IMG/VR virus record: IMGVR_UViG_3300015360_000023
Location: 128,001 to 192,000 of that record
Origin: a virus
Lineage: Duplodnaviria > Caudoviricetes
Length of the DNA stretch: 64,000 nucleotides
Reading direction: 5' to 3' (one strand)
Under the pieces are notes generated by a model that ran no database searches, had not been told where the DNA came from, and saw only the letters and a program-made list of their open reading frames with translations. Numbering within the stretch: the stretch's first letter is position 1; every line of letters begins with the position of its first letter. Made by a program: the position numbers and the translations under genes. Positions 44,113 through 60,352 of the stretch are shown here, piece after piece.

Positions 44113-44282
44113 GCTTTTTACTCAACTTAATCTCGACAAACCAATGGGGGATCTAGTAGGGGGTAATAGTATTATGATCTGGGTTAGGACGTTAGGTCAC
44201 CCTGTAATTTTTATTTAATAAGCCTAAGGGACTGCTACTGTTTTCCCGTTTACCTGTGGTTATACTTAGTTTTGAGGAAAAC

Positions 44283-45161
44283 ATGAAACACATAGGGCCT
44301 ATCCTACTATTGTCTACCATTGTACTTGGGGCTTGCGTTCAGAAGGAAAATAAAAACATTGTCACTGGAGTCGACGCTTCCGCCCGGCCTGTAGCTCCTT
44401 CTAGTGTGCCCATTAGCACAACACCTACATCATCTCCACATCGTAATTGTCCACCAGATATGGTGAAAGTCGAAGGTGATTATTGTCCTAATGAAGAACA
44501 AGTTTGTTTGTACAATACAGATAATGATGGCAATCGATTGGAAGGTCCCGGTGACTTATCCAAAGCTTGTGGTGAATACAAACAGCCAAGCAAGTGTTTG
44601 GTTGAAAAAGTACATATGAATTTCTGCATTGATAAATATGAATGGCCCAATAAAGAAGGTCAACTCCCTCAAGATTGGATGACTTTTTTCGATGCGCAAA
44701 AAGCGGTAGCATCTGTAGGTAAGCGACTCTGTACTCATAAAGAATGGAGTCTAGCGGCCGAAGGGCCGAACATGCACCCACTGCCATATGGCGATGGATT
44801 TCATCGTAAAAGACTTTGCAATTTTGATAATCACAATCCTGGTATAGATGTTTTTCAGTCTAAGAGTCCGAACGATGAAGCTTCTCAGAAGCTTCGTGCA
44901 CTATTAGTTCCTTCTGGTTCTATGGAAGAATGTGTCTCTGATTTTGGAGTACATGATATGTCAGGCAATATTGATGAATGGGTTATCAATGAAAGTAGTA
45001 ATGATTACTGCATCAATAAAACCAGTGGTAATTGTAGAACTGGTTTAATGGGAGGGCACATCTGGCATGTGCGCAACGCTAGCCGTCCCATGACTACGGC
45101 TCATGGTGCAGGATTTGGGTGGTATGAGACTGGAGCTAGGGCCTGTAAGGATGCCGAATGA
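44283..45161 (+). CDS. FGE-sulfatase (SUMF1/EgtB/PvdO-type) domain lipoprotein
   Basis: Lipobox VLGAC; CPPDMVKV; FCIDKYE; GKRLCTHKEW..A; DMSGNIDEW; ATG at 44283. Confidence 0.85.
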   Translation: MKHIGPILLLSTIVLGACVQKENKNIVTGVDASARPVAPSSVPISTTPTSSPHRNCPPDMVKVEGDYCPNEEQVCLYNTDNDGNRLEGPGDLSKACGEYKQPSKCLVEKVHMNFCIDKYEWPNKEGQLPQDWMTFFDAQKAVASVGKRLCTHKEWSLAAEGPNMHPLPYGDGFHRKRLCNFDNHNPGIDVFQSKSPNDEASQKLRALLVPSGSMEECVSDFGVHDMSGNIDEWVINESSNDYCINKTSGNCRTGLMGGHIWHVRNASRPMTTAHGAGFGWYETGARACKDAE

Positions 45162-45835
45162 ATCTTAAAGAGTTTTTGGAGTATAGGAAGATCTGCCCAA
45201 TCTGTAGTGATGTGTTGGTTACTTCTTTCCACTCTCAAAAGAAACAAATCATCAGATATGAAGATGATAGGTTTGTTGTTATCTTTCGACTTGATGCGCT
45301 TAAAAAGAAGCAAATCAATTATAAGGTAGGATACTCATTTGGATTCGAAAATAACTCTTGGCATGTAGAATTCTATTCTCAAGATGATAAGAGGTTTGAA
45401 AATGATTCGCCAAACTTTTTGAGGGATCGCTTCAAAGAACTTGATAAGAATCTAGGACAGTATAAGTTTTATCGTCATTGTACAGGGTGTTGCTGTTACA
45501 ATTATTCATCTCAAGATTTTTATCTTGATTATGATTTGGGTCTTATTGAAGAGTTAATAGTTAACGTAGAGTACATAGGAATGCTTCAGCCAGTTGAATC
45601 TGGATTCAAGGTGTATAAACTTCTGAATGATTATGGTGGTGGTAAAAGTACCATCGTATTCGGGCGTCATCACTCGGAACTGATTGCTCGCTCAGATGCC
45701 GGAGTAGTTAATAAGGGGCCATTTATTACTACTAGTTATGGTAGTAATCTGGATATGATTCAGACGCCCATCATTAAATTTACTTCTAATGAAGAAACAA
45801 TGGAGCGCATTAATAAACTCCTTATTTTCTCTTAA
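45158..45835 (+). CDS. Array member, large subfamily (CPIC ... ERINKLLIFS)
   Basis: N-terminal EFLEYRKICPIC, internal CTGC, C-terminal module. Confidence 0.8.
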   Translation: MNLKEFLEYRKICPICSDVLVTSFHSQKKQIIRYEDDRFVVIFRLDALKKKQINYKVGYSFGFENNSWHVEFYSQDDKRFENDSPNFLRDRFKELDKNLGQYKFYRHCTGCCCYNYSSQDFYLDYDLGLIEELIVNVEYIGMLQPVESGFKVYKLLNDYGGGKSTIVFGRHHSELIARSDAGVVNKGPFITTSYGSNLDMIQTPIIKFTSNEETMERINKLLIFS

Positions 45836-46338
45836 AGGAACGCGCTCAGCTTCTTGACAGCTTGCATCCACCTAATAATATCTACAATGGTATCTATAGG
45901 AACGTCATAAGCTCCGGACCCTTTGAAATAACTTAACCATGGACGGTCAGTAAATCTGTTATCTTTGGATAAGTCAGCACGAACATCCATGTTGCACGGA
46001 TGACCATTAGGAGTTGTAGTTTTTTTTTCATAAACTGAAAAGGATAGGACGCCCTTTTCTAAAGGAGTTGTTCCATAATAACCGTTAATTTTGATAGAAA
46101 AAGAACCGACCTGAATGTTTTGAGTTTTACAGATAGCAGTTTTAATTTGATCTTTACGTAAATTAGTGGCGTCCGTTATTCCATTGAAGATAATATTCTT
46201 CATCTTCTCTTTGGCCGGAGGCTCGGCCCAAATCCAAGAATCATCTGGAGTTTTTTCTTCTGGTTCCTCAGAATAATCGTATTGATGGTCAGTTAGATAT
46301 TGTAGATATTTAAGGTGTTCTTTGCGTGGCGTTGACAT
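45832..46338 (-). CDS. Inverted array member without a zinc ribbon (ends KKLSAFL)
   Basis: Shares the stop tetranucleotide TTAA with the convergent gene; resembles 51084-51521. Confidence 0.75.
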   Translation of the reverse strand: MSTPRKEHLKYLQYLTDHQYDYSEEPEEKTPDDSWIWAEPPAKEKMKNIIFNGITDATNLRKDQIKTAICKTQNIQVGSFSIKINGYYGTTPLEKGVLSFSVYEKKTTTPNGHPCNMDVRADLSKDNRFTDRPWLSYFKGSGAYDVPIDTIVDIIRWMQAVKKLSAFL

Positions 46339-46383
46339 AGTAGGTCTAAATATAGCTATTTATTACTAATTTGTCATTATTAT

Positions 46384-47040
46384 ATGGATTCTAATAAACT
46401 ACTTAAGATGGCAGAATATTTTTATGCCTTAGCTGTCGGAGAGAAACTTCCGGCTGACGCTAAAGATCTGAAGACTATTTTAAAGAATCTAGAGACGCTT
46501 GAGAACTATAACTCTCGCAAGAAGTATGCCGAGAAGAACTTAAAGCATTTATCATCTGGTTCATCTAGAATTGTTTATTCTAGCCCAGATGACACTATCA
46601 TTAAGCTGGCCAAGAATGATAAGGGAATTGCTCAGAACAAAGCCGAATGTAACCCAAAGATGAAGTCCAAATACCTTAATAAAATTATTAGTCATGCCAA
46701 GAACTATTCTTGGATGGAGACTCACTTTTTAGACAAGATTACTGTCAAAGAATTTGAAGAAATGACTGGTCTTAATTTTGATGATTTTGGGAGCGCCATT
46801 AGATACGGGTTAAAAAATGTTTCGGGAAATACGGACAAAGAAAAACCAGAGAACTTCGACAAAGTTGAGAAGTCCGGAATATATAAGGAGATGAAAAAAA
46901 TCGGCAATCAGTTCAAACTGATGCCCGGCGACCTAGCCAGAATCTCCTCATGGGGTACCAAAGATGGTAAACCAGTTTTGATTGATGCGGGTCTTACGAA
47001 AGACGTCTTCGCAGAATTCTATGAATCTTCCTCCTCTTAA
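46384..47040 (+). CDS. Protein kinase-like (PKL fold) protein
   Basis: Gly loop LSSGSSRIVY, IIKLAK, E in NKAE, catalytic GDL..ISSWG, VLIDAG (DFG-like). Confidence 0.65.
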   Translation: MDSNKLLKMAEYFYALAVGEKLPADAKDLKTILKNLETLENYNSRKKYAEKNLKHLSSGSSRIVYSSPDDTIIKLAKNDKGIAQNKAECNPKMKSKYLNKIISHAKNYSWMETHFLDKITVKEFEEMTGLNFDDFGSAIRYGLKNVSGNTDKEKPENFDKVEKSGIYKEMKKIGNQFKLMPGDLARISSWGTKDGKPVLIDAGLTKDVFAEFYESSSS

Positions 47041-47632
47041 ATTCCATTCTTTCAAAGAAGCTATTAGCTATAAAACTGTTTGCCCTCTGTGTACTAATGC
47101 ATTACACATCAACGATAGGGATTTAGCAACCGACTATCGCCGCTCAGATTGTGGATTGAAGGAAAGACTTTCTTTTCATGTTAATCAAAGAGAGCAGGAC
47201 ACGATCACTATAGATCCAGAGACAGATGAGGTAGAGCTAGTTCTATCTGATAGAATATCTGATGAAGTACTTCAGTCATTACCTCCTGCGACTCAAAAAA
47301 TAATGAACCCGCCCATTTACAATGGGATGTTTTTACATGGGCTAACTATTGATTGTAAGAGTTGTTGTCAATATAGTTTTACCTTACAAATTCATTTCGA
47401 TTTATCTAAACAAAAATTATTTGGAATCTTCTTAAACTCTGAGAATGTTAGCATCGAAGAGGGAGAAATGGTTCATGAGATCAAGAACTCTTATGCTACT
47501 CAAATAACTTACTATTCGTATTTTGATAAAGAGGGGGACTCGAAGAAGCTGTCTCTACCTTTAATTCCTCTGGATCTTTCGGAACCTAAGGAGACTGTGG
47601 CTCGTATTCGTAATTTACTAATTTTCTCTTGA
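47021..47632 (+). CDS. Array member, large subfamily (CPLC ... RIRNLLIFS)
   Basis: ATG 47021; CxxC pairs; C-terminal module. Confidence 0.8.
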   Translation: MNLPPLKFHSFKEAISYKTVCPLCTNALHINDRDLATDYRRSDCGLKERLSFHVNQREQDTITIDPETDEVELVLSDRISDEVLQSLPPATQKIMNPPIYNGMFLHGLTIDCKSCCQYSFTLQIHFDLSKQKLFGIFLNSENVSIEEGEMVHEIKNSYATQITYYSYFDKEGDSKKLSLPLIPLDLSEPKETVARIRNLLIFS

Positions 47633-47638
47633 GGCAAG

Positions 47639-48349
47639 ATGCTATCACAATTTGTTAACTATAATCATCAATGTCCGTTATGTAATGAGCCACTCAATTT
47701 ATATATGCGTTGGCAGGACTCTTTGTTCTTTCAAGCAAAGAGTGTAGAAAGGGACATAATTCAATTTGATGCTTATGCCGGCACTGAAACAAAGGCTGGA
47801 ACCAAGCCCGAGTTAGAGGCCTTGAGTGGCGAGAGCATGCTCCTAGGGTTTGAGGGAGATAAAGCGCTCACTGAATTTACCTCTAATGGATTAGCTAATG
47901 AAGCTAAGAAGCATCATATCTATTTCTTCTATCTATGTAATCCAAAAGGTATTAAACAAAAGGGGTTTGCAGATTTTTCCATTTCTCTTTATAAAGGATG
48001 TTACTATCGCTCTACTCCTTTTTATGAGTTCAAACAATCTGAAGATAAGACTTGGGCATTAGATACTGTTAATCCAGATTTTAAAGAAATAGTTAATAAG
48101 GACGAATCATTTGCCTTCAATTCTATAGAAGATAATTTAGAGAAGGTATATATGATGAATCTAGATCATGAGAAGAAAGAGACTATGCTTTGGTACTATT
48201 CAGTAACTGAAGAGGATAAGAAGGTAAAAGGATTTAGACCTAAGTTATTTGAGAAGAGCGTTCCGTTGCTTTCAAACAGACCTAAGCTAGGGCGTGAGGA
48301 TAGGGCTAGGCTGATTGAAAGATTCGATGGTTGGATTATCATGTCATGA
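47639..48349 (+). CDS. Array member, large subfamily (CPLC ... DGWIIMS)
   Basis: CxxC; variant C-terminus; ATGA overlap. Confidence 0.8.
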   Translation: MLSQFVNYNHQCPLCNEPLNLYMRWQDSLFFQAKSVERDIIQFDAYAGTETKAGTKPELEALSGESMLLGFEGDKALTEFTSNGLANEAKKHHIYFFYLCNPKGIKQKGFADFSISLYKGCYYRSTPFYEFKQSEDKTWALDTVNPDFKEIVNKDESFAFNSIEDNLEKVYMMNLDHEKKETMLWYYSVTEEDKKVKGFRPKLFEKSVPLLSNRPKLGREDRARLIERFDGWIIMS

Positions 48350-48741
48350 GCGATGTAGTTTTGGTTCCAGATCATTATTATAATTGCCCTATTTGTGGAC
48401 AAGCATGTCTGGAAGAAAAGATTGATGGGTGGAGGACGGTGCTCAAGACGCAAGGAGCGTGCCAACAATTTATATGCATTAACCCACTTGCGAACAATCC
48501 GCTTCATTATTACGATCACCTCGTGGATGAGGCTACCCCCAATCGTATTGCTTACCAAGAGTTCTCGATCGATATTGGCAGCAAATATATTATGTTTGCT
48601 TTAGATCTGGTACACCAAAAAACTTTGATTAAAAACAGTGTCAATGCTGATGCATTAGAGCTAGACTTTATAATCGTCCCAGACTTTCCAACTCTTGGCT
48701 CCCTCAAAAAGAAGATTAGAACAGCAATTACATTCTCATGA
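48346..48741 (+). CDS. Array member (CPIC ... [10 protein letters not shown])
   Basis: ATG 48346 overlaps the upstream TGA; ATGA overlap into prfB. Confidence 0.8.
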
Positions 48742-49832
48742 AAACTGCAACTCAATTAGTGGAATCCTGTCGAGACTTACTTAAAGGTCTTGAGGATATG
48801 ATTCCCATTAAAAATCATCAGAATAGGTTGGAGGAGATTGATGAACGCTCCAGCAACCCTAACTTTTGGACTAATACTAATGAAGCTACTAAGCTCATGA
48901 AAGAGCGTCAGAAAGTATCTGATATTCTTTCTTTTATGAAGGGTGCCCAGGACCAGGTAGCTTTCTTCGTAGAGGTGTATGACAATATGGCCGAAGAGCT
49001 GGAGGCCATGAAGCCTGAACTATCTCTTTTAGAGTCGTCTATGGCTGATTTTGAGTTCCGTCAGATGCTCAAGGAGCCTATTGATGAGAGCCCCGCCATT
49101 ATGACCATTTCTGCCGGCGCAGGAGGCCTTGAGGCAGCCAATTGGGTTACCATGCTCCTCCGCATGTACTCCCGCTATGCTGATTCTTTTAAATTCAAAG
49201 TAGAGCTATTGGATATGAAGCCTTCTGAGGAACATAGCTCTATTTGTACAGATTCAGTCTCTATCAGGATAGATGGCCCTTATGCTTACGGCTTTCTAAG
49301 GGGCGAGGCCGGTGTCCATCGACTTATCCGCAACTCCCCATTCAATTCAGGCGATGCCCGTCATACCTCCTTTGCAGCCGTAGCCGTCACGCCCGACATT
49401 GAAGATACCATTGAGGTAGTGATAAATGAAAAAGATATTGAGATTACTACTATGCGAGCTTCCGGTGCTGGTGGTCAGAATGTTAACAAAGTAGAGAGTG
49501 CCGTTCGTCTCAAGCACATTCCTACTGGAATCGTCATCAACTCTCGTTCAGAACGAGACCAACATACCAACCGCCGCCTCGCCATGAAGATGCTTAAGGC
49601 GAAGTTGTATGATTTAGAGATGCGAAGGAAGATGACAGAGAAGGAGAAGTATCTGGCTAGCATGCAGGAGAACTCTTTCGGCAACCAAATGCGCACATAC
49701 ACTCTGACGCCCTATCAACTAGTCAAGGATGAAAGAACCGACTACCAGGTAAGGGATGCAGATAATGTACTAGATGGAGACATCCAAGGATTCATTACTT
49801 CTTATTTACATTTTAGAGATAAAATCGTATAA
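48738..49832 (+). CDS. prfB: Peptide chain release factor 2, with no programmed frameshift
   Basis: SPF anticodon-mimic motif (RNSPF), [16 protein letters not shown]; continuous reading frame. Confidence 0.95.
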
Positions 49833-49836
49833 ATGG

Positions 49837-50415
49837 ATGAAGCAATTTACCGTCAAAGACTTCATTACATACAACAGCCCTTGTTTTAGTTGTGATGAAA
49901 AAATCTCTTTCAGTATAGTTTCGACGACCCTACAAGGTCCGGCAGATATTGTTCATCTCCGACCAACAGTTAATCCAGATCATATCTCGGTAGATCTAAA
50001 GATTACTTATAACCAAACATTATCTTTAAAGATTCAAAATAAAACTAATGCAATCTTCTATAATGATAATAAAGGTGTAGCTGACTATATTTATAGTCAC
50101 AGGTTATTTCTAACCAGTAGCTGTAATAAGTGTCTTACTAAAATTGAAAGCCAGTTCTTAGAGTTTAACTTATCAAATGGCTATATTAAACCTGTAGGTA
50201 TTGCTAGGGAGTCTCTCATTGTATCAGATGCTACACATAGATATCACGTGTATTCTACGACCATTAGCGATAAGAGTGTAATTACTATGGATAGGATTGA
50301 TAAGCCAATTCCTATCTCTCCAGTCCGCATTGAAACACCACTGCTCCCCTTATATAGGTTTAAGGATCGCCAGCATTTTATTAACAAGATGAAGACATTT
50401 TTGATATTCTCATGA
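49837..50415 (+). CDS. Array member, large subfamily (CFSC ... KMKTFLIFS)
   Basis: ATG 49837; two CxxC; C-terminal module. Confidence 0.8.
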   Translation: MKQFTVKDFITYNSPCFSCDEKISFSIVSTTLQGPADIVHLRPTVNPDHISVDLKITYNQTLSLKIQNKTNAIFYNDNKGVADYIYSHRLFLTSSCNKCLTKIESQFLEFNLSNGYIKPVGIARESLIVSDATHRYHVYSTTISDKSVITMDRIDKPIPISPVRIETPLLPLYRFKDRQHFINKMKTFLIFS

Positions 50416-51089
50416 ATTTATTAGACATTTTATCCTATCGAACCCGCTGTATGATATGTGACCGCAAGCTGGAGATGAAGTCTTTGGATTTGGCCGGCGT
50501 CAACATAACAAGAACTCAAGAAGGCCTTTATGTTGAGGTAGGAAGTAAAGATAAAGATTATGCTGTCTATTTCAAGTATGATGGCTCTTATGAGAGAATG
50601 AAGAAGTGGAATAGTATGTATGTTAGGCCACTATCTATCCTCAAAGAATGTCCTAAATGTATTCCCAAGGTTGACTTGGTGGAAGATGTAGTTTTAACTG
50701 GCATCCCCAAGGCGCCCTCAACCATTATCCTCAAGGCTAGGAGCGTGGGCATGACAACAATGCATGGGGTCATGTCCCAGTTCTTAGTGGATACCACCTT
50801 AAAGTCTCTGAAGGATAAGCGATGCGCTTATACCTTTGACCTGTTTGGGGACGCTGAGGGTAACTTTGACTGCCAGCTAAACTGGGAGGACATTAGTTTC
50901 CACACTAAGAGAGAGTTCCATCAAATCAAGACGAACTTCAAAGAAGACACTACTAGTATCAAGAGCGGCGCTTTTAACGGCACCCTTGATGACATCATTA
51001 GAATGAATGTTCCGGCCGTTAAAACCAACACCATTCCTACTACAGATAAATTGATTGAAAAAATTAAGTTGTATAACTTATTCTCATGA
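50412..51089 (+). CDS. Array member, large subfamily (CMIC ... KIKLYNLFS)
   Basis: Two CxxC; C-terminal module. Confidence 0.8.
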   Translation: MNLLDILSYRTRCMICDRKLEMKSLDLAGVNITRTQEGLYVEVGSKDKDYAVYFKYDGSYERMKKWNSMYVRPLSILKECPKCIPKVDLVEDVVLTGIPKAPSTIILKARSVGMTTMHGVMSQFLVDTTLKSLKDKRCAYTFDLFGDAEGNFDCQLNWEDISFHTKREFHQIKTNFKEDTTSIKSGAFNGTLDDIIRMNVPAVKTNTIPTTDKLIEKIKLYNLFS

Positions 51090-51521
51090 GAATATCTTCA
51101 AATTATCTAATCTTTTCAAATACATAATGATGTCAGTTAGATTTTTCATTCTGATTTTATAATTTGGATTGAGGTTAACCCAATATTGATTTTTGAATAA
51201 CTTACTATCTAGTTTAATATTGCGTAAGACTTTATTTTTGCCGGTGCTAGTAACTTCATAAATGGCAACACGGAAGCCGCCATACTCTCTTAGTAGTTGA
51301 CGGTCTCTATAAGCAGAGAGGGAGGGGAACAAGATTCGTACCTTGTACATTCCTATCTTAATTTGGTTCTCCACAAATGTATAGCTCTCAGAGTCAGGAA
51401 GTTTAGTTACTTCTTGAACCTTAGCCTCACGGAGAGCCCGCTTAATCATGTTCTTAGATACTTTGCCTTTGCTGAAATCTAAGATCGTCCTAAATTCCTG
51501 CTTACCTTTAATCAAACTCAT
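51084..51521 (-). CDS. Inverted array member without a zinc ribbon (ends DNLKIFS)
   Basis: Shares TCATGA with the convergent gene. Confidence 0.75.
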   Translation of the reverse strand: MSLIKGKQEFRTILDFSKGKVSKNMIKRALREAKVQEVTKLPDSESYTFVENQIKIGMYKVRILFPSLSAYRDRQLLREYGGFRVAIYEVTSTGKNKVLRNIKLDSKLFKNQYWVNLNPNYKIRMKNLTDIIMYLKRLDNLKIFS

Positions 51522-51790
51522 CTTTGTAATTCATTCCCTCCGAAGACCATGAAGTTATCAGTTATAACTAGCATTGCGCTCTCGGATATCTCATCATCGT
51601 GTAGCATTCCATAGATAGCTCCACCTACACATAATGCTACGTTATCTACTCTTTCACCATATCTAAAGTAAGTTCCGAAGGCTAACTTGCCCTCTTGTAA
51701 AAGCTCAAGATGGTAGCCGATGTCAGATTTAAGAATTCTCAGAGAGTTGCGCCCGTCGAGGGCGTGTGTTACAATGATTATTGCGTTCAT
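51518..51790 (-). CDS. Hypothetical protein
   Basis: 90 aa; ATGA overlap with 51084-51521. Confidence 0.65.
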   Translation of the reverse strand: MNAIIIVTHALDGRNSLRILKSDIGYHLELLQEGKLAFGTYFRYGERVDNVALCVGGAIYGMLHDDEISESAMLVITDNFMVFGGNELQR

Positions 51791-51804
51791 AATAGGTATA
51801 TAAC

Positions 51805-52460: not shown

Positions 52461-52852
52461 CGTGTATGTTCTGTTTAGCTCCACTTACCAGGGTTGCTTC
52501 TCCAGCCGGTGATGATTTACACAAGATAATGGTTTGTCGCGGCTGCCAAGAACCTAACTTCAAAACGTATTGTCGAGAGCTTTACTTAACTAAAACCGAA
52601 ATCAAATTATATGATTCTATTCAAATAGATGAATTCATCATCACACGCCTTTATAGGTCATCCAGAACTGGGCAACCAATAGAGCAAACTAAATTCTATA
52701 AAGATTCTATAGGTCAGATAGATTCACAAGTCGACGCTACCCCTCTAACTTACTATCTACCTATTTGTGAGCTTGATTATCATATCAAGCTGCCCCTCAA
52801 TGACCTTGGCGCCTTCAAGCGCAAACTTAAACTTTGGACCATCTTCAGTTAA
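52457..52852 (+). CDS. Array member (CMFC ... KLKLWTIFS)
   Basis: Two CxxC; terminal Ser encoded by AGT. Confidence 0.85.
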   Translation: MTCMFCLAPLTRVASPAGDDLHKIMVCRGCQEPNFKTYCRELYLTKTEIKLYDSIQIDEFIITRLYRSSRTGQPIEQTKFYKDSIGQIDSQVDATPLTYYLPICELDYHIKLPLNDLGAFKRKLKLWTIFS

Positions 52853-52884
52853 CGTAGTAATTTGTAGGGGTTATATACCCCTAT

Positions 52885-53250
52885 ATGGATGATACGCCTA
52901 CATGTCCAATTTGCGGAAATAAAATGCGCACGGTTAATCTTGATAACAAGTTACTTCATATTATCAAAAAGCAAGCTAATTATGTAGAAAGAACCTGTGT
53001 TAATGGAATGAATCATAGCTTGCGGCTTTTTGCTGATAAAGCTACTGGTCAGGTAGACTTTATCAACCTATCTTTGAATCCTAAGTATTCTAAATACCTA
53101 GAGATAGATTTTATTAACTCAAAATGTCGAATTAATTGCATGAAGGAAGGTAAGCCAGAGTACATTGAAATACCTAAGATGATTATCCCTGATTTCCCTT
53201 TACTAGAGAAACTTAAGGAACGTGTTAACCTCTACGTAGTATTTTCCTAA
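52885..53250 (+). CDS. Array member (CPIC ... RVNLYVVFS)
   Basis: CxxC, CxxxxxH, C-terminal module. Confidence 0.85.
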   Translation: MDDTPTCPICGNKMRTVNLDNKLLHIIKKQANYVERTCVNGMNHSLRLFADKATGQVDFINLSLNPKYSKYLEIDFINSKCRINCMKEGKPEYIEIPKMIIPDFPLLEKLKERVNLYVVFS

Positions 53251-53582
53251 TGTACACACAATGCGTTTTATGTAAAGCAGAGCCATTAGAGCATGTTGAT
53301 AATGGGTGGTTTTATACTAAGCTTTGTGTAGTTTGTGAAGTAGATGGAATGTCTAAGTTTCAAGCTTCTTATCGAAAGAAGGATGATAAGCTAATCTATA
53401 TGGTTTGGTGGATAGAAGATTTCTATATTAAAATAGATTATGTAGAACAAATGACTGAAATATCAAAGATAGATCTCATAATACTTCTAAGTACTTTTCG
53501 ACTGTCTCACACTTTAGAGATTGATCACGAAGATCCCTCAGCCACTGCCCGCCGCCTTCAAGCTCTAATGGCATTTTCATGA
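53250..53582 (+). CDS. Array member (CVLC ... RLQALMAFS)
   Basis: Two CxxC; TAATG overlap. Confidence 0.85.
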   Translation: MYTQCVLCKAEPLEHVDNGWFYTKLCVVCEVDGMSKFQASYRKKDDKLIYMVWWIEDFYIKIDYVEQMTEISKIDLIILLSTFRLSHTLEIDHEDPSATARRLQALMAFS

Positions 53583-53965
53583 CCGTTGACTTTATCTTCT
53601 GCCCATTATGTGGCGCTTCTAAATGGCTAACCGATAAGACAGGATCCTGCTCGACAGGTAAATTAACTAAGTACAATTGCAGCGGCTGCAAAAATTTCAA
53701 ATATGTAAACGTCACCAGATTAGTAAAGCATTCAGTTCTTGTCGGGATTACACAAACGGTTAGATATTCAGTTGAAGCAGTTATCAAGCCTTATAGTGTT
53801 ACTGTCTTCTACTTCTCAGGTATAAATGGCGATGAGCCAGGCTTCACTAACATTAGGTCTGACACCGGAGAATTGCTGGTATCTATTAAGTCAATAATTA
53901 CTTTCAATTGGTATAAAGACGAGTTACTGCTAGACAAGATTAAAAAGTATATATTATTTTCATGA
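53579..53965 (+). CDS. Array member (CPLC ... KIKKYILFS)
   Basis: Two CxxC; ATGA overlaps. Confidence 0.85.
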   Translation: MTVDFIFCPLCGASKWLTDKTGSCSTGKLTKYNCSGCKNFKYVNVTRLVKHSVLVGITQTVRYSVEAVIKPYSVTVFYFSGINGDEPGFTNIRSDTGELLVSIKSIITFNWYKDELLLDKIKKYILFS

Positions 53966-54354
53966 TTTGGGATAAAAAAATCTGTCCAATATGCGATAGT
54001 CCATTAAAAGTAGTTAATGGGTTTGATGAAGAAGACCTTTATCTAATGATGTGCCCAACATCAATAGCAAAAGACATACCAGTGGCCCATTCTACAAATT
54101 TAGCGAGTCATCAAATGACCTATTCTCATTTTGAATTAGAATTTCAAAATCACCAGCCTTCCTATCAAACAGTTAGAGTATACCCATATTGTGTTAAATC
54201 ATATGTTGATGTAAGTAACATTTATATGTATAGAATGATATCCGAACTTAAAATGTACGCTGAGTTCGTTGTCGAAACACCATTCATAGATCTTCCTTGG
54301 AAAGACAAAGAGAAGATTATTGCTAAACTTTCTACCTATACGTTGTTCTCATGA
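53962..54354 (+). CDS. Array member (CPIC ... KLSTYTLFS)
   Basis: CxxC, later C and H; ATGA overlaps. Confidence 0.85.
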   Translation: MIWDKKICPICDSPLKVVNGFDEEDLYLMMCPTSIAKDIPVAHSTNLASHQMTYSHFELEFQNHQPSYQTVRVYPYCVKSYVDVSNIYMYRMISELKMYAEFVVETPFIDLPWKDKEKIIAKLSTYTLFS

Positions 54355-54749
54355 ACTGCCCTATCTGTAATAAAACTATGCTGGAAACTGAAACCGCAGG
54401 CATGATGACCTGCGAACGAACTACTATAAAAGTTCCAGCCATAGATATGGAAGTTGAAAGCGTTCATGCTATCTACTTCTTAAATAAAGAAGGCCAAGCA
54501 ATCATCAAGACTATTGAGGCGCTTCCTTATATCTTCCAGATTCATGATGATCCTAAGTCCATTCGTCAGACTAGAATTTCCAAACTAATTAAAGGATACA
54601 AATACGGGGATAACGTATCAATGATTACTTTTGGAGAACAAAGAATTAATTGTGAACAGCTTATAGTTGTTCCGTCCGTAGTTAATATACAGTGGGATAA
54701 TCCTGAAGCAGTCAAAGAGCGCGTCCAAATGTATATGTTGTTCTCATGA
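54351..54749 (+). CDS. Array member (MNCPIC ... RVQMYMLFS)
   Basis: Same architecture. Confidence 0.85.
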   Translation: MNCPICNKTMLETETAGMMTCERTTIKVPAIDMEVESVHAIYFLNKEGQAIIKTIEALPYIFQIHDDPKSIRQTRISKLIKGYKYGDNVSMITFGEQRINCEQLIVVPSVVNIQWDNPEAVKERVQMYMLFS

Positions 54750-55114
54750 TCTTCTCTACTGATATTTGCCCTATCTGTAAAAGTAAACTAGAGCTACAAA
54801 TTGTAGAGGGCAATTATACTGTTCAGATTAATTACTATTGTAATAACAATGAGGTAGTTAGAAATGAATCAGATACCTTTGCAATATCTAAATCACATTA
54901 CCTGAACAAATGCTATCAGAATGGTAAAATGTGTTTTATGATTCTGCCACCATTTGAATTGTTGCACCATGAAAAGAGTAATAGAACGTTGGTTAAAAGT
55001 GTCAGCGCCCATCAGCCAGAGAAACTAATTTTAGATATTCCCTTACTTGACGCGGACTACGGCAATCCCTATGCTGTGCTCAACCGTTTAAAACTCCTGG
55101 TGACCTTTTCATGA
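54746..55114 (+). CDS. Array member (CPIC ... RLKLLVTFS)
   Basis: Same architecture. Confidence 0.85.
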   Translation: MIFSTDICPICKSKLELQIVEGNYTVQINYYCNNNEVVRNESDTFAISKSHYLNKCYQNGKMCFMILPPFELLHHEKSNRTLVKSVSAHQPEKLILDIPLLDADYGNPYAVLNRLKLLVTFS

Positions 55115-55455
55115 ACAAGTTCGAGACCAATCAGTGCCCCTTGTGTGGTGAAGTTTTGAAGCTCCGCAGAGTTTGCGGCGTCAATGTCTTCTCTTGCCCA
55201 ACCGTAACCCTCAGTAACCACACTCATTATGAGGTGGAAGTGGATGGTCAAACAAGCATCCAACATATGTATGTTGGCTCTTGGAGCATCGATAACTTCG
55301 CCAACTCTTCTAGATCTCGTATCTATAAACAAACTCCTCATCCCAGTGGAACAGGGATTCGATGGAAGTTGATGACGGAAGTGTCACACATCCGTCCCGA
55401 CCTTGAAGCTTCAATGTCAGAGCGCCTGGAAAAACTTATGATGACCTATGAGTGA
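55111..55455 (+). CDS. Array member, variant tail (CPLC ... EKLMMTYE)
   Basis: CxxC; C-terminal helix diverged. Confidence 0.8.
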   Translation: MNKFETNQCPLCGEVLKLRRVCGVNVFSCPTVTLSNHTHYEVEVDGQTSIQHMYVGSWSIDNFANSSRSRIYKQTPHPSGTGIRWKLMTEVSHIRPDLEASMSERLEKLMMTYE

Positions 55456-55834
55456 TAACGATAACTTCCAGAAGCATCACCTACCTAAACCCTGCCAGTT
55501 CTGCCCGAACATGGCGGGTTATCATCCATTGGAAGCAATGGAAAGACATAATGTTAGCGTTTACTTCTGTCATCCTTGCCAGGCCGAATACTTGTTTTTC
55601 CGAGATGGGAGTAGAGCTTCCGTGTCGTTATATACAACCATCAAAGACAAAATGTATCGCTGGACTGTAACCTCCGTTGGTTCGGCTCAGCTATGGCATG
55701 TTAAAGAACCAGGAGTTCCTGGTGTAAAAGTAAATGAAGGAATGTTTACTGTTAAAAGTTTTAGTGGAAACATACCTCAATTGACTCCAGATAATATCAA
55801 TGAGAAGGTAAGAACGTGGCTGCTTTTTCTTTAA
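55448..55834 (+). CDS. Array member (CQFC ... KVRTWLLFL)
   Basis: Two CxxC; QLTPDNINEK pre-terminal motif. Confidence 0.85.
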   Translation: MSDNDNFQKHHLPKPCQFCPNMAGYHPLEAMERHNVSVYFCHPCQAEYLFFRDGSRASVSLYTTIKDKMYRWTVTSVGSAQLWHVKEPGVPGVKVNEGMFTVKSFSGNIPQLTPDNINEKVRTWLLFL

Positions 55835-56235
55835 AGTGCCATTTATGCGGTACCTATTTAAGTGAGTCGTCCCCAATATGGAATGTTGGAGGCAGAAGAC
55901 GTGTAGCTTTTCGATGCCTGGACCAAAAATGTGGCCTCATTAAGGTAGTGAATCGTTCAGTTATCGAAATCATTTTACCAGATGAAGACATAGTATCTTA
56001 TCAATTACTTATCTCATCTGGTGAGAAATGGTATCGTATCTGGGGTAGAGTTAATTCTGAGGAGCCAAATGATACATCTATCTCTAATATGGATGTAGGT
56101 AGGCCAAATGCTACTGGAAAAGAACAGTTTATTATTAATGTTCCTCGTTTTTACCCTCTACACTTAGAAGAAGATCTCTATACTCAAGCACAAGAAATGC
56201 TGAAGAAACTTAAAAATCTTGTAATATTCTCATGA
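55816..56235 (+). CDS. Array member (CHLC ... KLKNLVIFS)
   Basis: GTG start overlapping the previous gene by 19 nt (start uncertain); CxxC; C-terminal module. Confidence 0.75.
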   Translation: MAAFSLKCHLCGTYLSESSPIWNVGGRRRVAFRCLDQKCGLIKVVNRSVIEIILPDEDIVSYQLLISSGEKWYRIWGRVNSEEPNDTSISNMDVGRPNATGKEQFIINVPRFYPLHLEEDLYTQAQEMLKKLKNLVIFS

Positions 56236-56609
56236 ATTGTCCTTTGTGTAATAGAAAGATTGCAGTAGAAATAGATAGCTATGAGCACGCGCCTTCATTC
56301 TATTGTAGCTCTATGATTACGCCAGATCCCCCTGGCAACAATACAATCAGCCATTACGGCAAGAGTTATTTATTTCACGGCGGATATGAAGAGGAGGCCA
56401 TCGTCCTACCTTACAAGATAGTAAACTACTTCGTTAATACTGATTACAAAAAACCCAGAAGCGAAATACATAAGTACCAACTTAAGGATATTCAATATTT
56501 TGGTAAGCGTTGGACCTGGGTAAAGATTATGGATCTTCCATATATTCTTGAGATCCTTCAGTACAAAAAGATGCGAAATAGACTTAAAAACATATTATTG
56601 TTCTCATGA
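56232..56609 (+). CDS. Array member (MNCPLC ... RLKNILLFS)
   Basis: Same architecture. Confidence 0.85.
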   Translation: MNCPLCNRKIAVEIDSYEHAPSFYCSSMITPDPPGNNTISHYGKSYLFHGGYEEEAIVLPYKIVNYFVNTDYKKPRSEIHKYQLKDIQYFGKRWTWVKIMDLPYILEILQYKKMRNRLKNILLFS

Positions 56610-56968
56610 AAAACTGTCCTCTTTGTGATAAATTGTTGGTCAAACAGTCTACCGTAGATGCGTGCGGATATGAGCCAGCTATCTATTGTCCAGAAGAGAT
56701 AACTCAAATAGGTGATAACCGAAAAGCTAATCACTATCGAGAAGACCCCGAGCTGAATACAGTTACCATGTATGTCGGCTCTTTTCGCATTTTAACTAAG
56801 GATGGCACTTCCAAGGTCGGAACTAGAATGCAGTACAAGACCAGACGAGGCCTTAGAACAACCCGAGGCCGCTGGCGATATAAGACTCTAATCGAAGTCC
56901 CCATCATCCATCCCGATACAGAAGAGAGGCTGTATTCGAGGATTAAACTATTGCTATTACTATCATGA
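56606..56968 (+). CDS. Array member (CPLC ... RIKLLLLLS)
   Basis: Same architecture, variant tail. Confidence 0.85.
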   Translation: MKNCPLCDKLLVKQSTVDACGYEPAIYCPEEITQIGDNRKANHYREDPELNTVTMYVGSFRILTKDGTSKVGTRMQYKTRRGLRTTRGRWRYKTLIEVPIIHPDTEERLYSRIKLLLLLS

Positions 56969-57315
56969 CCAATTGTTATTACTGTCAGAAGCCAAGCAGA
57001 TATACAATGGATGAGATGACCCGCATCTATTATTGGCAATGCGATTGGCATGGTGCCGTTAGAGTAAGGCAAACCGAAATGCTAACCGATAGTGGAGCCT
57101 TCAATGTCTCCTTAGTTGTCCTATACAAAGACGCGACCTACAGCGCAACTTTCTTTCGCAATTACGATGTCTTAGCCGGTCTTCCTAAGTTCCGCATCGA
57201 TAAGATTAACCGCCGCCCCAAGACCTCAGAGATTATTCTCGTTCTAGATTTTCATCCAGATATTACTCCAGAGAATATCGCAGCTAAACTACCAACCTAT
57301 ATTCTATTTTCATGA
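56965..57315 (+). CDS. Array member (CYYC ... KLPTYILFS)
   Basis: CxxC, CxxH; PDITPEN pre-terminal motif. Confidence 0.85.
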   Translation: MTNCYYCQKPSRYTMDEMTRIYYWQCDWHGAVRVRQTEMLTDSGAFNVSLVVLYKDATYSATFFRNYDVLAGLPKFRIDKINRRPKTSEIILVLDFHPDITPENIAAKLPTYILFS

Positions 57316-57713
57316 CAAATACTCTTTATATTGAAGAGGCACCAGCCACTATCCCCTGCTGGTATTGCGGTGAGACCTGTTATCCCACTACAGAACCCTT
57401 TGCAGATCGTCATGCCACAGAGTATCGCTGCCTAAGACACGAACCATTAGATGTTATGTTCCGTTGCGTTAAACATGATATCCCGTCTCCCAATGTATTT
57501 TTCAATACCGTTAGAATTACACTAAAAGATATGAGATTGGACCATAACTTCTATGCTGGTCCAAGAGCTTACCTAGAATGGTATAGGCCCGCCAAAGATA
57601 GATGCTGGGGAGGAGAATGGCGCCAAGTCAAAGTCTTTCCAGTTGATGTTATGATCAATACCGATCTTCATCAAGTATATTCATTACTTAATCTCTATAA
57701 GGTATGGTCATGA
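57312..57713 (+). CDS. Array member (CWYC ... LYKVWS)
   Basis: CxxC, CxxH; variant tail. Confidence 0.8.
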   Translation: MTNTLYIEEAPATIPCWYCGETCYPTTEPFADRHATEYRCLRHEPLDVMFRCVKHDIPSPNVFFNTVRITLKDMRLDHNFYAGPRAYLEWYRPAKDRCWGGEWRQVKVFPVDVMINTDLHQVYSLLNLYKVWS

Positions 57714-58069
57714 GACTCATCTGCCAATCTTGTAAGCACGAACTCATCCAAAATGTTTACTGGAAAAATAACATCAAATATGAAGATAATGTCTGGGAAT
57801 GTTCCGAAGGTCACTGCGCCCTTAAAATAGAAGGAAGCAATATAGTTAGCTATACCGTCTTCTTTGAACGTAGCAAGATAATGTACAGGCTATATGCTGA
57901 TTATAATAACGGTATGCAACTAGCCTCCAAAGATACCTCCAGATTTAAAAGAGGCGGTTTCAAAACATCTCTAACCATTCCACAATACATTAATTTAATC
58001 ATCAAAGATGAAATTATACAAGTAGAATACTTAGTAGATAAACTAAGGAAGTTAGTCATCTTTTCATGA
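57710..58069 (+). CDS. Array member (CQSC ... KLRKLVIFS)
   Basis: ATG 57710 overlaps the upstream TGA. Confidence 0.85.
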   Translation: MRLICQSCKHELIQNVYWKNNIKYEDNVWECSEGHCALKIEGSNIVSYTVFFERSKIMYRLYADYNNGMQLASKDTSRFKRGGFKTSLTIPQYINLIIKDEIIQVEYLVDKLRKLVIFS

Positions 58070-58105
58070 CGACACAATGTTAAACCGATCCGCGAGCCAA
58101 CGCGC

Positions 58106-58402
58106 ATGAACTGCCATTACTGCCAAAAGGAATGCCGACACATCAATATCTCCAATAATCATTGGAGATGTCTACCTTGCAAAGTGGATTATCGCGGAGT
58201 GGAAACCAATATCTTCGGCATGATCAACAGCACTTCTTACTACTTCAATATCTATAATGGCCCCAGAGAGTTCCCCGTTAGAATCATGAAAGGATTGCCC
58301 AATGACTTTGCCGTCAACATTGTCGTCAACCTAACAAGTCGCCCGGATATAACCCCTTCCAACGTGGAAGAGAAACTCAGAACCTACCTGCTATTCTCAT
58401 GA
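58106..58402 (+). CDS. Array member (MNCHYC ... KLRTYLLFS)
   Basis: Two CxxC; PDITPSN motif. Confidence 0.85.
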   Translation: MNCHYCQKECRHINISNNHWRCLPCKVDYRGVETNIFGMINSTSYYFNIYNGPREFPVRIMKGLPNDFAVNIVVNLTSRPDITPSNVEEKLRTYLLFS

Positions 58403-58767
58403 GAATCCCCTGCAAATTTTGCCAACGTCACTATACTCCCAAAGATTACATCGACGTTAAACGCATCAATGGCGGCTGGATTACCTTCAAGAACCAACAC
58501 GTCAATTGTCAAACATGTCTGGTTGACTTCTATTATGATTATACTGATAACTCTAAACTAGTTAGAATTAACTATCGAATAAGAAGTAGACCTTACTCAG
58601 ATGTTAATATGGACCTAGCCCTAAATAAGACTTTCCTTATCTTCCATCCCAAACAAAAGACTTTTTCAACCAGCATCATTGCCTTCGATGGTACCTGGCC
58701 CGAGACCAAGCCCAATGATGCTCTCGCCCTAGCCAAACGTCTAACTAACCTATTGATGTTCCTATGA
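58399..58767 (+). CDS. Array member (CKFC ... RLTNLLMFL)
   Basis: Two CxxC. Confidence 0.85.
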   Translation: MRIPCKFCQRHYTPKDYIDVKRINGGWITFKNQHVNCQTCLVDFYYDYTDNSKLVRINYRIRSRPYSDVNMDLALNKTFLIFHPKQKTFSTSIIAFDGTWPETKPNDALALAKRLTNLLMFL

Positions 58768-59123
58768 CTTTCTACTGTCACTTCTGCGATAAACGATGCC
58801 GACAAACCTTTCCGGAACTTAAAGAATGGTGGTGCGAACATTGCAGAGTCACCTTCCAAGAAGGCAATGGCTCTTTCGGTTTGGATGGAATCAAATTCTC
58901 CCTAGCCAATCCAGACTATAGCCATTATTACTTGACCATTAATTTCGCTTCAAGCTTAACCATCTTGTCCTGGCATCGTCCCCCAAGACACCTCAATGAA
59001 GACCCTCAAGCCTATGATGAACTGCCCAAGGAAAAGGTTGTGCTCCGTATCTGGCAAGCTATCCAAGGTGTCAAGCCCAATAATCTCAAAGACAAAATTC
59101 AAACTCTATTAACCTTCTCATGA
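58764..59123 (+). CDS. Array member (CHFC ... KIQTLLTFS)
   Basis: Two CxxC. Confidence 0.85.
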   Translation: MTFYCHFCDKRCRQTFPELKEWWCEHCRVTFQEGNGSFGLDGIKFSLANPDYSHYYLTINFASSLTILSWHRPPRHLNEDPQAYDELPKEKVVLRIWQAIQGVKPNNLKDKIQTLLTFS

Positions 59124-59479
59124 ACCTTAAAGTTGTCCAGTGCTACTCCAAAAACAAAGTCTATTGCTATTATTGTGACGAGGATATGACCCCAGATGAT
59201 GGTCAACAAATCAATGGTTACTTCGATTGCAAACCCTGTCATACCAGATTCATCTGCTCCGGTAACTTCTCCAACCCAGATATTGAATACATTCATTTTA
59301 CCGTTGATAGCTATCTAATTGAATTGAATTATGATAGGAATCAAACCTTCCTATTCCATAAGGATGAATCCCCTATGCGTAGACTGCATATGATGGAGTT
59401 AGCTTACATTGCAGATATTAATCCAACCAACGCTAAGTATTGGCTAACTAAACTATTAAATCTCAAAGCCTTCTCATAA
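59120..59479 (+). CDS. Array member (CYYC ... KLLNLKAFS)
   Basis: Two CxxC. Confidence 0.85.
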   Translation: MNLKVVQCYSKNKVYCYYCDEDMTPDDGQQINGYFDCKPCHTRFICSGNFSNPDIEYIHFTVDSYLIELNYDRNQTFLFHKDESPMRRLHMMELAYIADINPTNAKYWLTKLLNLKAFS

Positions 59480-59602
59480 ATGGCCTATAATTTCCTATCA
59501 TTATGATTGATATCAATGATTCTCCTTGATTTACCGAGTGATTATAAACTAACCCCCAAAAATTTCCCTGGAAAACTACAGGTTTTACCCAACTTCCTAT
59601 AA
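59480..59602 (+). pseudogene. Relic array member or 28-aa micro-ORF made of the C-terminal module only
   Basis: One frame reads ATG(59480) MAYNFLSL, TGA(59504), LIS, ATG(59516) MILLDLPSDYKLTPKNFPGKLQVLPNFL, TAA(59600-59602). Confidence 0.6.
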
Positions 59603-59603
59603 A

Positions 59604-59945
59604 ATGAATTGCCCACTTTGCCAACGCAGCCTAAGACCAGATCCACAGTATCCGTCTTGTCTAACTTGCCCCACCAAAATTACCTATCCTCATTGCACAC
59701 CTATATCTCATTACGAATTTGATGGAGAAGTACTCTGTACAAGCCACCAATGGTATGTCGGCCCCTTCAAACTAGAAATAGATGCTACTGGCTTATCCAT
59801 TTATAAAATCGATGTCCTGAAAACTAAACCAGATTATCCTGCCAAACCCTCTGTCGAATACATCATGTACCTGGATATTCAAATCCCCATTGATGATTCC
59901 AATAAAACTATTAACAAAATCAAGACTTTCATTCTATTCTCATGA
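59604..59945 (+). CDS. Array member (MNCPLC ... KIKTFILFS)
   Basis: Same architecture. Confidence 0.85.
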   Translation: MNCPLCQRSLRPDPQYPSCLTCPTKITYPHCTPISHYEFDGEVLCTSHQWYVGPFKLEIDATGLSIYKIDVLKTKPDYPAKPSVEYIMYLDIQIPIDDSNKTINKIKTFILFS

Positions 59946-60283
59946 ACTGTCCTATCTGTCAGAAAAGAATTAAACCTTTCCGCTATTGGGATGCAGACCG
60001 TACTACCGGCCAAAAGGTGTATGATCAAGAACCAACCTTTCAATGCGAAACAAGAGTCCCATTAAACAATGGCCAAGCCTTATGTCACTATAGTTATGAG
60101 GCCGTCACCAAATATTCTTGGATAATTATCTATCCATTTAGAATTAAACAATCATTAACCCATTCAACTTTCCAGCAATACTCCCAAACCTCTTGGACCC
60201 AACTCTTGCAAATACCTAGAGTTACCCATAAGCAAGCCATCCAAATATTGTCTCGCTTTAAAAATCTAAACCCCTTCCTATAA
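59942..60283 (+). CDS. Array member (MNCPIC ... RFKNLNPFL)
   Basis: Same architecture; last gene of the array. Confidence 0.85.
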   Translation: MNCPICQKRIKPFRYWDADRTTGQKVYDQEPTFQCETRVPLNNGQALCHYSYEAVTKYSWIIIYPFRIKQSLTHSTFQQYSQTSWTQLLQIPRVTHKQAIQILSRFKNLNPFL

Positions 60284-60321: not shown

Positions 60322-60352
60322 AGAATTTTCACACATATTTTTACTCAGACTT

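Follow-up and report, generated by a model that had tools for sequence, protein, structure and literature searches.

The window analyzed here is a 64,000-nucleotide stretch of phage DNA (bases 128,001-192,000 of the 202,609-bp IMG/VR virus record IMGVR_UViG_3300015360_000023), and our subject is the array of small genes at positions 45158-60283 of that window, most of whose products end in a short hydrophobic sequence closed by Phe and then Ser or Leu (FS or FL). The 29 open reading frames (ORFs) of this array that carry an N-terminal zinc ribbon, 24 short and five long, are one homologous family. Their common ending, which the original prediction had taken for a portable tag on unrelated cores, looks in structure models like the last structural helix of a single domain, the sole helix over a conserved hydrophobic sheet face. 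Structurally, we consider it likely that these proteins belong to one domain family and that the tail is the helix of its core. The whole explanation that we favor, in which the array would be an ancient collection of dimeric binders or regulators whose translation is coupled by termination-reinitiation, claims more, and the chances for and against it seem to us evenly balanced. Genes are named below by their first coordinate in the window.

A family of zinc-ribbon proteins

The ORF listing places 34 genes in the region 45158-60283, which extends over ~15 kb or 7% of the record, and all 31 of the tail-bearing ORFs originally predicted are present among them. Of these, 29 lie on the plus strand and have an N-terminal C-x2-C motif; 24 are short (98-139 amino acids, aa) and five are long (about 192-236 aa). 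The other two, 45832-46338 (168 aa) and 51084-51521 (145 aa), are on the minus strand and have no cysteine motifs. The zinc ribbon that had been assigned to most of the ORFs is thus carried by 29 of the 31, but not by these two, which belong to a different family. Three further genes in the region have other endings, namely those encoding release factor 2 (RF2), a 218-aa protein, and a 90-aa protein on the minus strand.

The cores of these proteins had been described as unrelated, a claim that we could not uphold, as full-length homology in BLAST and hidden Markov model (HMM) comparisons and one common predicted fold connect them. For example, 48346 and 52885 share 26% identity over 122 aa, that is, over their full length (BLAST, E 2e-8), and similar BLAST matches join 56965 to 58106 (27.5% over 120 aa) and 55111 to 56606 (29% over 115 aa). 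The 24 short members match the family profile from end to end, the profile having been built from a 54-sequence alignment that includes them. For the long members 46985 and 50412, the match is split into two pieces, suggesting a domain insertion or partial duplication. Overall, the paralogs are mutually 15-25% identical.

The family extends far beyond this record. When the profile was compared with 1.84 billion representative proteins, 1,546 clusters at 50% identity were recovered at E <= 0.001, and among the 150 matches listed, nearly all were 97-141 aa long and matched over their full length. In an alignment of 197 sequences, C5, C8, and C25 do not vary, and H31 (82%) or C28 (32%) serves as the fourth ligand, so that the four predicted Cys/His ligands are arranged as two knuckles, C-x2-C followed by C-x2-C or C-x5-H. 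None of the curated zinc-ribbon models in Pfam was reached, with Zn_ribbon_6 (E 0.015), Zn_Ribbon_TF (0.049), and Zn_ribbon_TFIIB (0.09) all falling under their gathering scores. The members are soluble proteins with isoelectric points (pI) of 5.1-9.6, about a third of them acidic. No member of the family, nor the 168-aa or the 145-aa protein, had a significant match in Pfam, PHROGs, or NCBIfam, and full-text searching of the literature found no description of the zinc-ribbon array family. Judging from the literature searched and these three family libraries, neither the family itself nor its fold, size, colinear arrays, or association with RF2 has been described before.

The C-terminal ending and the predicted fold

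As originally reported, 27 of the 31 ORFs end in FS or FL, the exceptions being 47639 (MS), 55111 (YE), 56606 (LS), and 57312 (WS). Counted over non-overlapping genes of the entire 202.6-kb record, such an ending occurs in 27 of the 34 array-region genes versus three of 172 genes elsewhere (Fisher p 4e-24), and 0.66% per gene would be expected from composition. The pattern upstream of it is also real: the 197-sequence alignment has a basic residue at position -9, hydrophobic residues at -8, -5, -4, and -3, F at -2 (89%), and S at -1 (84%), the last residue being otherwise L, Q, T, G, I, A, or E. Two more relatives had been proposed at 1139 and 35335. These are not members, as 1139 fails both the family profile and a matrix of the tail (score -5.0) and 35335 is marginal (3.7). 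Outside the two tail-bearing families, neither the family profile nor the tail matrix identified any gene in the record with a convincing tail. The ORF directly downstream of 1139 (1441-1986, plus strand) has a weak, sub-cut-off match to an AAA-type P-loop (E 0.0037, 14.7 bits).

The commonest junction between members is TTC or TTT, TCA, TGA, with the stop codon overlapped by the next ATG, and the ending might be considered a by-product of these ATGA overlaps. We rejected this because genes without the overlap keep the ending and overlaps elsewhere vary. The terminal codons are those given originally (TCA, TCT, TCC, or AGT for Ser; CTA, TTA, or CTT for Leu), and the ending is indeed retained at junctions without an ATGA overlap, where TCT, AGT, TCC, CTT, or CTA is used. 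In addition, the 21 ATGA overlaps elsewhere in the genome show 11 different last codons, and the overlap therefore does not force Ser. Among orthologs in two related phages (L001 and L002), the proportion of synonymous differences (pS) in the last nine codons is 0.62, versus 0.11 for nonsynonymous ones (pN). In the rest of the proteins, pS is about 0.73-0.76 (saturated) and pN about 0.2, and saturated pS with low pN along the whole length points to genuine genes maintained by purifying selection. Paralogous tails within the window have a third-position identity of 0.37 and a mean nucleotide identity of 0.48. Since synonymous sites are free, the ending is selected at the protein level rather than as junction DNA, in agreement with the original prediction, and the same two identities led us to reject a recombination cap or a DNA or RNA signal at the junctions. 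The position of the ending is also constrained: among the 147 newly listed top hits of the profile search, 129 have F at -2 with the chain ending exactly one residue later, and 111 end in FS. In L003, a more distant relative, three of nine members end in FS.

An AlphaFold2 (AF2) model of the 106-aa member 51805, computed from the 54-sequence alignment, has a predicted local distance difference test score (pLDDT) of 88.4 and a predicted template modeling (TM) score of 0.77. It comprises short strands at the zinc knuckle, a strand meander over residues 13-81, and a single helix at 92-105, giving a predicted fold of an N-terminal zinc knuckle, a seven-stranded antiparallel sheet, and one C-terminal helix. 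The last block, in which the helix runs to the penultimate residue, has a pLDDT of about 85. Models of paralogs in BFVD superpose on that of 51805 with TM scores of 0.6-0.93, the best with a root-mean-square deviation (rmsd) of 1.6 Å over 121 columns, helix included; these BFVD proteins, labeled "uncultured Caudovirales phage", appear to be paralogs from the same or a near-identical genome. In the 197-sequence alignment, hydrophobic strand positions (47, 49, 56, 58, 69, 79, 81, and 85) alternate with polar ones, the hydrophobic positions of the helix are 95, 99, 102, 103, and 105, and the two sets form one predicted core. Mutual information recovers the strand ladder (e.g., 45-60, 48-57, and 68-80). 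With the helix as the only cover for the hydrophobic sheet face, the tail would be expected to be the best conserved segment in a family otherwise 15-25% identical. The tail, then, does not behave as a portable tag: it sits on one homologous domain, and its other carriers form a single family whose tails have no significant profile similarity to it.

Searches for similar structures returned only generic neighbors. Foldseek comparison of the member model with PDB and the clusters of the AlphaFold Database gave nothing at E <= 0.001, and no named cluster emerged when the ESM Atlas was searched by feature. The best VIA-wide match was Porphyromonas gingivalis LolB (Z 7.2, rmsd 3.0 Å, 80 aligned residues), which lies within the tool's stated background of 7-8, and the best Atlas matches were DUF3108 and DUF4292 (TM 0.56-0.59), which are generic curved sheets. 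Thus, LolA/LolB/LptC-like proteins and the curved sheets of DUF3108 and DUF4292 are the best structural neighbors of the sheet, at scores common for unrelated sheets; these folds have no zinc site, they show no sequence similarity, and the matches span residues 1-90 only. The concave hydrophobic side of the LolA and LolB sheet is covered or plugged by helices. A known full-length domain with a merely structural last helix had been named as what would speak against a docking tag. What we found is one full-length domain whose last helix looks structural, but this domain is not a known one.

The model also suggests how the proteins may associate. Two-copy prediction of 51805 gave an interaction prediction score from aligned errors (ipSAE) of 0.45 (0.37-0.56 in three runs), versus 0.02 for the best of three controls. 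In a calibration that is only rough, a custom alignment having been used as input, the mark was reached by 20 of 30 solved one-chain pairs and by one of 23 solved single chains. At least 93% of contacts are common to the three runs, the partner pLDDT is at least 77, and the predicted interface comprises residues 3-35 of the zinc-ribbon hairpin plus residues 47, 49, 89, 92, and 95. Members thus probably form a symmetric homodimer through the zinc-ribbon hairpin. The tail was rejected as the dimer interface, since residues 98-106 lie outside the predicted contacts.

The two minus-strand genes constitute a second tail-bearing family, as hhalign relates the 168-aa product of one to the 145-aa product of the other (E 4.8e-5 over 110 columns). 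For the 168-aa protein, 108 homologs were recovered, representing at least 108 clusters and located on contigs of up to about 500 kb; the ending is A-F-L or similar throughout, with F at -2 in every homolog and FL at the end of 99. The AF2 model of the 168-aa protein (pLDDT 80) consists of a sheet and a long C-terminal helix (148-167) and has no neighbor in PDB, among Swiss-Prot models, or VIA-wide (best Z 4.3). Shallow and deep profiles, tails included, detected no homology between this family and the zinc-ribbon family, and common descent was therefore set aside. The two families meet where 50412-51089 (plus) and 51084-51521 (minus) converge: they overlap by 6 nucleotides within the palindrome TTCTCATGAGAA (51081-51092), and because the overlap is palindromic, both genes read F-S-stop from the same DNA. 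The F-ending of the second family may reflect a similar design of a sheet with a terminal helix.

The invariant F of this second family is the one fact that keeps the idea of a shared ending open. According to that idea, the end of the C-terminal helix would be a common docking peptide or degron that delivers both families to one host or phage machine (for instance a protease, a clamp-like hub, or a packaging receptor), and the array would be an adaptor or effector library. Conservation of the ending at the protein level with free synonymous sites is consistent with this, as are the near-invariant basic residue at -9, the chain end one residue past F in most of the family hits listed, and the recurrence of F, then mostly L, in a family of different fold encoded in the same block. 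However, the tail is predicted to be helical with good confidence and is the only cover of a hydrophobic sheet face, the tails of the two families lack significant profile similarity, no other gene in the record has a convincing tail, and the last residue varies, with only a third of the L003 members ending in FS. PDZ (PF13180) and ClpP (PF00574) domains were not found in the record, which is ~47% complete, and the reader could be a host protein. Known C-terminal recognition elements, such as the ssrA and ClpX C-motifs, PDZ ligands, and the clamp-binding tails of T4 gp43, gp33, and gp55, are flexible, exposed peptides, and the PDZ and ssrA types have a hydrophobic residue or Ala in last position. 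The array tails resemble them as short conserved hydrophobic C-terminal sequences common to several proteins, but differ from them in being a predicted packed helix that usually ends in Ser and has a variable last residue. An exposed flexible peptide of the degron or PDZ type is disfavored by the predicted packing of residues 92-105 of 106, the pLDDT of that segment, and the superposition at TM 0.93; the fixed last residue typical of that type was likewise not found, and a variable last residue is a poor fit to a pocket that reads a free C-terminus. Overall, we consider common docking through the helix end unlikely.

Several points nevertheless weigh against taking the ending as a structural helix and the array as a library of binders. 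The chain end, fixed one residue past F, shows more positional constraint than the end of a plain structural helix usually does, the last helical turn is hydrophobic all round, and the non-homologous second family likewise ends in an invariant F, then L. The tail columns are too conserved to covary, so that covariation does not inform on how the helix packs. That F105 and S106 are buried is suggested by model confidence, by superposition with an independent model, and by the hydrophobic pattern, and both structure models, as well as the dimer, are predictions. The binder-library function is one that we infer solely from architecture and evolution. That the exact ending (a hydrophobic turn, F, a small residue or Leu, and a free carboxylate) is an address docking two unrelated families onto one machine or membrane seems doubtful to us even with these points in mind.

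Gene order, release factor 2, and relatives

The record (G+C 40.6%) has a CheckV completeness of ~47% and encodes a gpA-type large terminase and a tail sheath, which identify a large myophage. The terminase is only ~25% identical to that of the nearest isolate, and neither the array DNA nor the 1370-aa structural protein nor the 168-aa protein had a match among 50,697 phage records. Among public runs, DNA of the record was detected solely in microbial-mat metagenomes, and no RNA run carrying it was listed that could inform on expression. Given the estimated completeness and the presence of the same gene block on contigs of 380-500 kb in relatives, the phage is probably a huge phage of roughly 400-500 kb. 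A ubiquitin-E1 FCCH-like domain (PF16190) is repeated in several of its large tail- or fiber-like proteins and in a sheath-like protein. The genes of the array region and other features are as follows.

11691-13955, 15830-18355, and 21445-23070 (minus), and genome 72109-75144: PF16190-bearing proteins
44076-44105 (plus): terminator-like hairpin (consensus scan) upstream of the FGE-sulfatase-like gene that opens the co-directional block
45158-45835 (plus): long member, 225 aa; ends LIFS; stop TAA, no ATGA overlap; tail matrix 23.8 though outside the training set
45832-46338 (minus): second-family protein, 168 aa, single-copy; no zinc ribbon; ends SAFL
46384-47040 (plus): conserved 218-aa gene, non-member, possibly kinase-like; phrog_4301, function unknown
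46985-47632 (plus): long member, 215 aa; ends LIFS; family HMM E 1.9e-6 in two pieces; tail score 21.2
47639-48349 (plus): long member, 236 aa; ends IIMS; N-terminal C-P-x-C; weak HMM match, E 0.23
48346-48741 (plus): short member, 131 aa; ends ITFS; HMM 59 bits
48738-49832 (plus): phage RF2 (prfB), non-member; Pfam PCRF and RF-1; TIGR00020
49837-50415 (plus): long member, ~192 aa from an ATG just 3' of the RF2 stop; ends LIFS; tail score 14.9
50412-51089 (plus): long member, 225 aa; ends NLFS; HMM E 1.7e-5 in two pieces; tail score 28.5, outside the training set
51084-51521 (minus): second-family paralog, 145 aa; ends KIFS; tail score 9.9
51518-51790 (minus): 90-aa gene, non-member
51805-52125 (plus): short member, 106 aa; ends LVFS; member modeled by AF2
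52122-52460 (plus): short member, 112 aa; ends LVFL
52457-52852 (plus): short member, 131 aa; ends TIFS; Ser is AGT, stop TAA, no overlap
52885-53250 (plus): short member, 121 aa; ends VVFS; Ser is TCC
53250-53582 (plus): short member, 110 aa; ends MAFS
53579-53965 (plus): short member, 128 aa; ends ILFS
53962-54354 (plus): short member, 130 aa; ends TLFS
54351-54749 (plus): short member, 132 aa; ends MLFS; L001 ortholog absent
54746-55114 (plus): short member, 122 aa; ends VTFS
55111-55455 (plus): short member, 114 aa; altered end MTYE; L001 ortholog ends NFL
55448-55834 (plus): short member, 128 aa; ends LLFL; Leu is CTT, stop TAA
55816-56235 (plus): short member, 139 aa from a GTG start; ends VIFS
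56232-56609 (plus): short member, 125 aa; ends LLFS
56606-56968 (plus): short member, 120 aa; ends LLLS
56965-57315 (plus): short member, 116 aa; ends ILFS
57312-57713 (plus): short member, 133 aa; ends KVWS
57704-58069 (plus): short member, 121 aa; ends VIFS
58106-58402 (plus): short member, 98 aa; ends LLFS
58399-58767 (plus): short member, 122 aa; ends LMFL
58764-59123 (plus): short member, 119 aa; ends LTFS
59120-59479 (plus): short member, 119 aa; ends KAFS; stop TAA
59604-59945 (plus): short member, 113 aa; ends ILFS
59942-60283 (plus): last member, 113 aa; ends NPFL; no ortholog found in relatives
60291-60322 (no strand assigned): 14-bp stem-loop directly 3' of the last member, terminator-like when scored on the minus strand (consensus scan)

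The relatives compared were L001 (a 116-kb Logan assembly), L002 (an NCBI assembly), L003-L005, and a 480-kb contig from the European Nucleotide Archive, and the same block is present in all of them. Its usual order is the FGE-sulfatase-like lipoprotein gene, a long member, the minus-strand 168-aa gene, and the 218-aa gene, followed in most relatives by long members, RF2, further long members, and the short-member array, and contigs between 74 and about 500 kb long preserve both this order and the RF2 gene. In L001, L002, L004, and L005, the orthologs lie in colinear order, with identities of 30-83%. Compared with the 15-25% identity of paralogs, this suggests that the paralogs are old and individually maintained. 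For example, 45158 has orthologs with 83% identity in L001, 75% in L002, 48% in L004, and 36% in L005; orthologs of 47639 are colinear in L001, L002, and L005; those of 49837 are 187-188 aa long; and 52885 represents the best conserved subfamily (59-79% identity in relatives). The distal members 54746, 55816, 58399, 59120, and 59942 have no clear orthologs, and copy number differs, with about 9 members in L003, 25 in L001, and 29 in this record. Genes for IF1-like, SET-domain, RNase T, dUTPase, and IMPDH proteins are found near the array in relatives.

RF2 (48738-49832) scores 404 bits against TIGR00020 (cut-off 370), with SPF and GGQ motifs visible, and its gene is a single open frame without the programmed frameshift of Escherichia coli prfB. 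It is located inside the array in every relative examined (L001-L005 and the 480-kb contig). ATGA overlaps occur at 23 of the 34 array-region genes, and TGA is the stop codon of 25 of these 34 versus 44 of 172 genes elsewhere; of 206 stops in the record, 127 are TAA, 69 TGA, and 10 TAG, the last being rare. Scans of the array for sigma-70 promoters (56 sites vs. 53.8 expected) and for terminators (11 vs. 11.3) were at background, and no repeated operator-like motif was found in the gaps within the array. The array has no sigma-54-like box on its plus strand, the sole match within it being on the minus strand. Boxes of this type (TGGCA-N6-TTGC) were observed just downstream of the array, where they cluster in a stretch of 53% G+C (window positions 62263, 62439, and 63478, plus strand), and beyond the window at genome positions 192893 and 193402. 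Several of them are followed by a second TTGCA and CCCGAGCCAAG.

Coupled translation and fixed order are also what would be expected if the paralogs were subunits of one hetero-oligomeric assembly, in the virion or inside the cell, made in equimolar amounts. The ATGA coupling, the colinearity of paralogs across the clade, and the location of the array next to the tail and fiber module are compatible with such an assembly, and the conserved predicted dimer interface might permit mixed pairs. Yet copy number ranges from about 9 to 29 among relatives, distal members lack orthologs, surface charge is very heterogeneous, and no structural-protein homology was found, and we therefore regard subunits of a single assembly as highly improbable.

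The conserved 218-aa protein within the block (46384-47040) is 62-82% identical across five relatives, far above neighboring genes. In a profile search, a region with a glycine-rich loop and Lys weakly matches the SteC effector kinase (E 0.0084), and its sequence suggests that it may be a minimal kinase-like protein. The three genes flanking the array encode exported enzymes, which is unusual in a phage: an FGE-sulfatase-domain protein (44256-45161, plus), an HExxH metalloprotease (60353-61009, minus), and a trypsin-like serine protease (61012-61782, minus), each with a lipoprotein-like signal peptide. The M10/M12-like matches of the metalloprotease are below threshold.

Possible functions and known systems

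In the explanation that we favor, the array would be one old lineage-specific multigene family in a clade of uncultured huge myophages, with each gene giving a small cytoplasmic protein of a single compact domain. In this domain, a pair of zinc knuckles would run into a seven-stranded antiparallel sheet, one face of which lies under the amphipathic C-terminal helix. The ending would be that helix, which together with the zinc ligands would hold the fold while the exposed sheet face and loops diverged. The proteins would probably form homodimers through the zinc-ribbon hairpin. The long co-directional block would be co-expressed, with termination-reinitiation at the ATGA junctions and with the phage's own RF2 encoded in the same block. 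Each paralog may bind its own target, a protein or a nucleic acid, during infection, and the array would then represent a fixed library of specific binders or regulators rather than a set of cargoes under one address label. This function is suggested by variable surfaces on a constant scaffold, by the wide range of pI, by purifying selection on each ortholog group, and by the fixed gene order, the ATGA coupling, and the RF2 gene embedded in the block. The adaptor library proposed originally therefore survives in part: protein-level selection, a large undescribed family, and variable surfaces on a constant scaffold stand, but the detachable tag is not supported.

A rival possibility is that the members are dimeric zinc-ribbon regulators that bind DNA or RNA sequence-specifically and program phage or host transcription or translation. 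Bacillus phage G contains a lineage-specific expansion of about 35 zinc-ribbon proteins, for which a role as specific transcription factors or in structural binding of DNA was suggested (Iyer, Anantharaman, Krishnan, Burroughs, Aravind 2021, PMC7824862). Like the phage studied here, phage G has a very large genome with tens of small paralogous zinc-ribbon proteins. When the family profile was searched against the whole phage G genome, the best match was a weak one to gp166 (E 3.3e-4, 20.5 bits, profile positions 4-97, covering ribbon and sheet). The BFVD model of gp166 has a TM score of 0.31 to the member model, its end is different and lacks F-S, and the gene stands alone among unrelated genes. 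Besides this precedent and the weak match, the zinc ribbon with a predicted symmetric dimer, the conserved K/R at -9 and -7, the adjacent RF2, and the IF1-like gene in relatives are in keeping with nucleic-acid regulators. On the other hand, members range widely in pI and many are acidic, the family libraries gave no known nucleic-acid-binding domain, there is no conserved basic patch besides the two helix positions, and the gaps of the array contain no repeated operator-like motif. We therefore think it rather unlikely that the members are nucleic-acid-binding regulators. Small zinc-ribbon expansions in very large phages are thus already known, and the present family is an undescribed one.

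The helix could instead act at the membrane. MinD and FtsA have C-terminal membrane-targeting helices, and a helix of this type, freed on dimerization or target binding, would place the library at the inner membrane. The C-terminal helix of the array proteins is basic, hydrophobic, and amphipathic, with a fully hydrophobic last turn, the proteins are predicted to dimerize, as MinD needs to, and the array is flanked by the lipoprotein-like FGE-sulfatase, metalloprotease, and trypsin-like genes. The model, however, packs the helix confidently on a sheet that has no other cover, and membrane targeting appears to us very unlikely.

Among eukaryotic viruses, the ankyrin/PRANC proteins of poxviruses and the MGF360/505 proteins of African swine fever virus (ASFV) are encoded by tandem diverged paralogs with a constant element at one end and are thought to interact with the host. 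The array shares with them its tandem diverged paralogs, the constant end element, and the variable surfaces. The C-terminal F-box-like module of PRANC proteins forms a domain of its own and has Skp1 as its receptor, whereas the C-terminal element here is one helix of a single small domain. In addition, the paralogs of the array are old and positionally fixed, unlike the rapidly turning over families of poxviruses and ASFV.

Huge phages carry hundreds of genes without assigned function, and the array is among the larger coherent blocks of this kind. The family could now be formally defined as a novel domain, and its members lend themselves to structure determination and to screens for interaction partners. 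Should the ending prove to be an address label after all, phages would have a targeting signal of a new kind; the colinear array of ~30 genes would then be a pre-built adaptor library, and the embedded RF2 and the kinase-like gene could belong to the same system. If, as we favor, the paralogs are specific binders or regulators, the array would show how very large phages organize infection.

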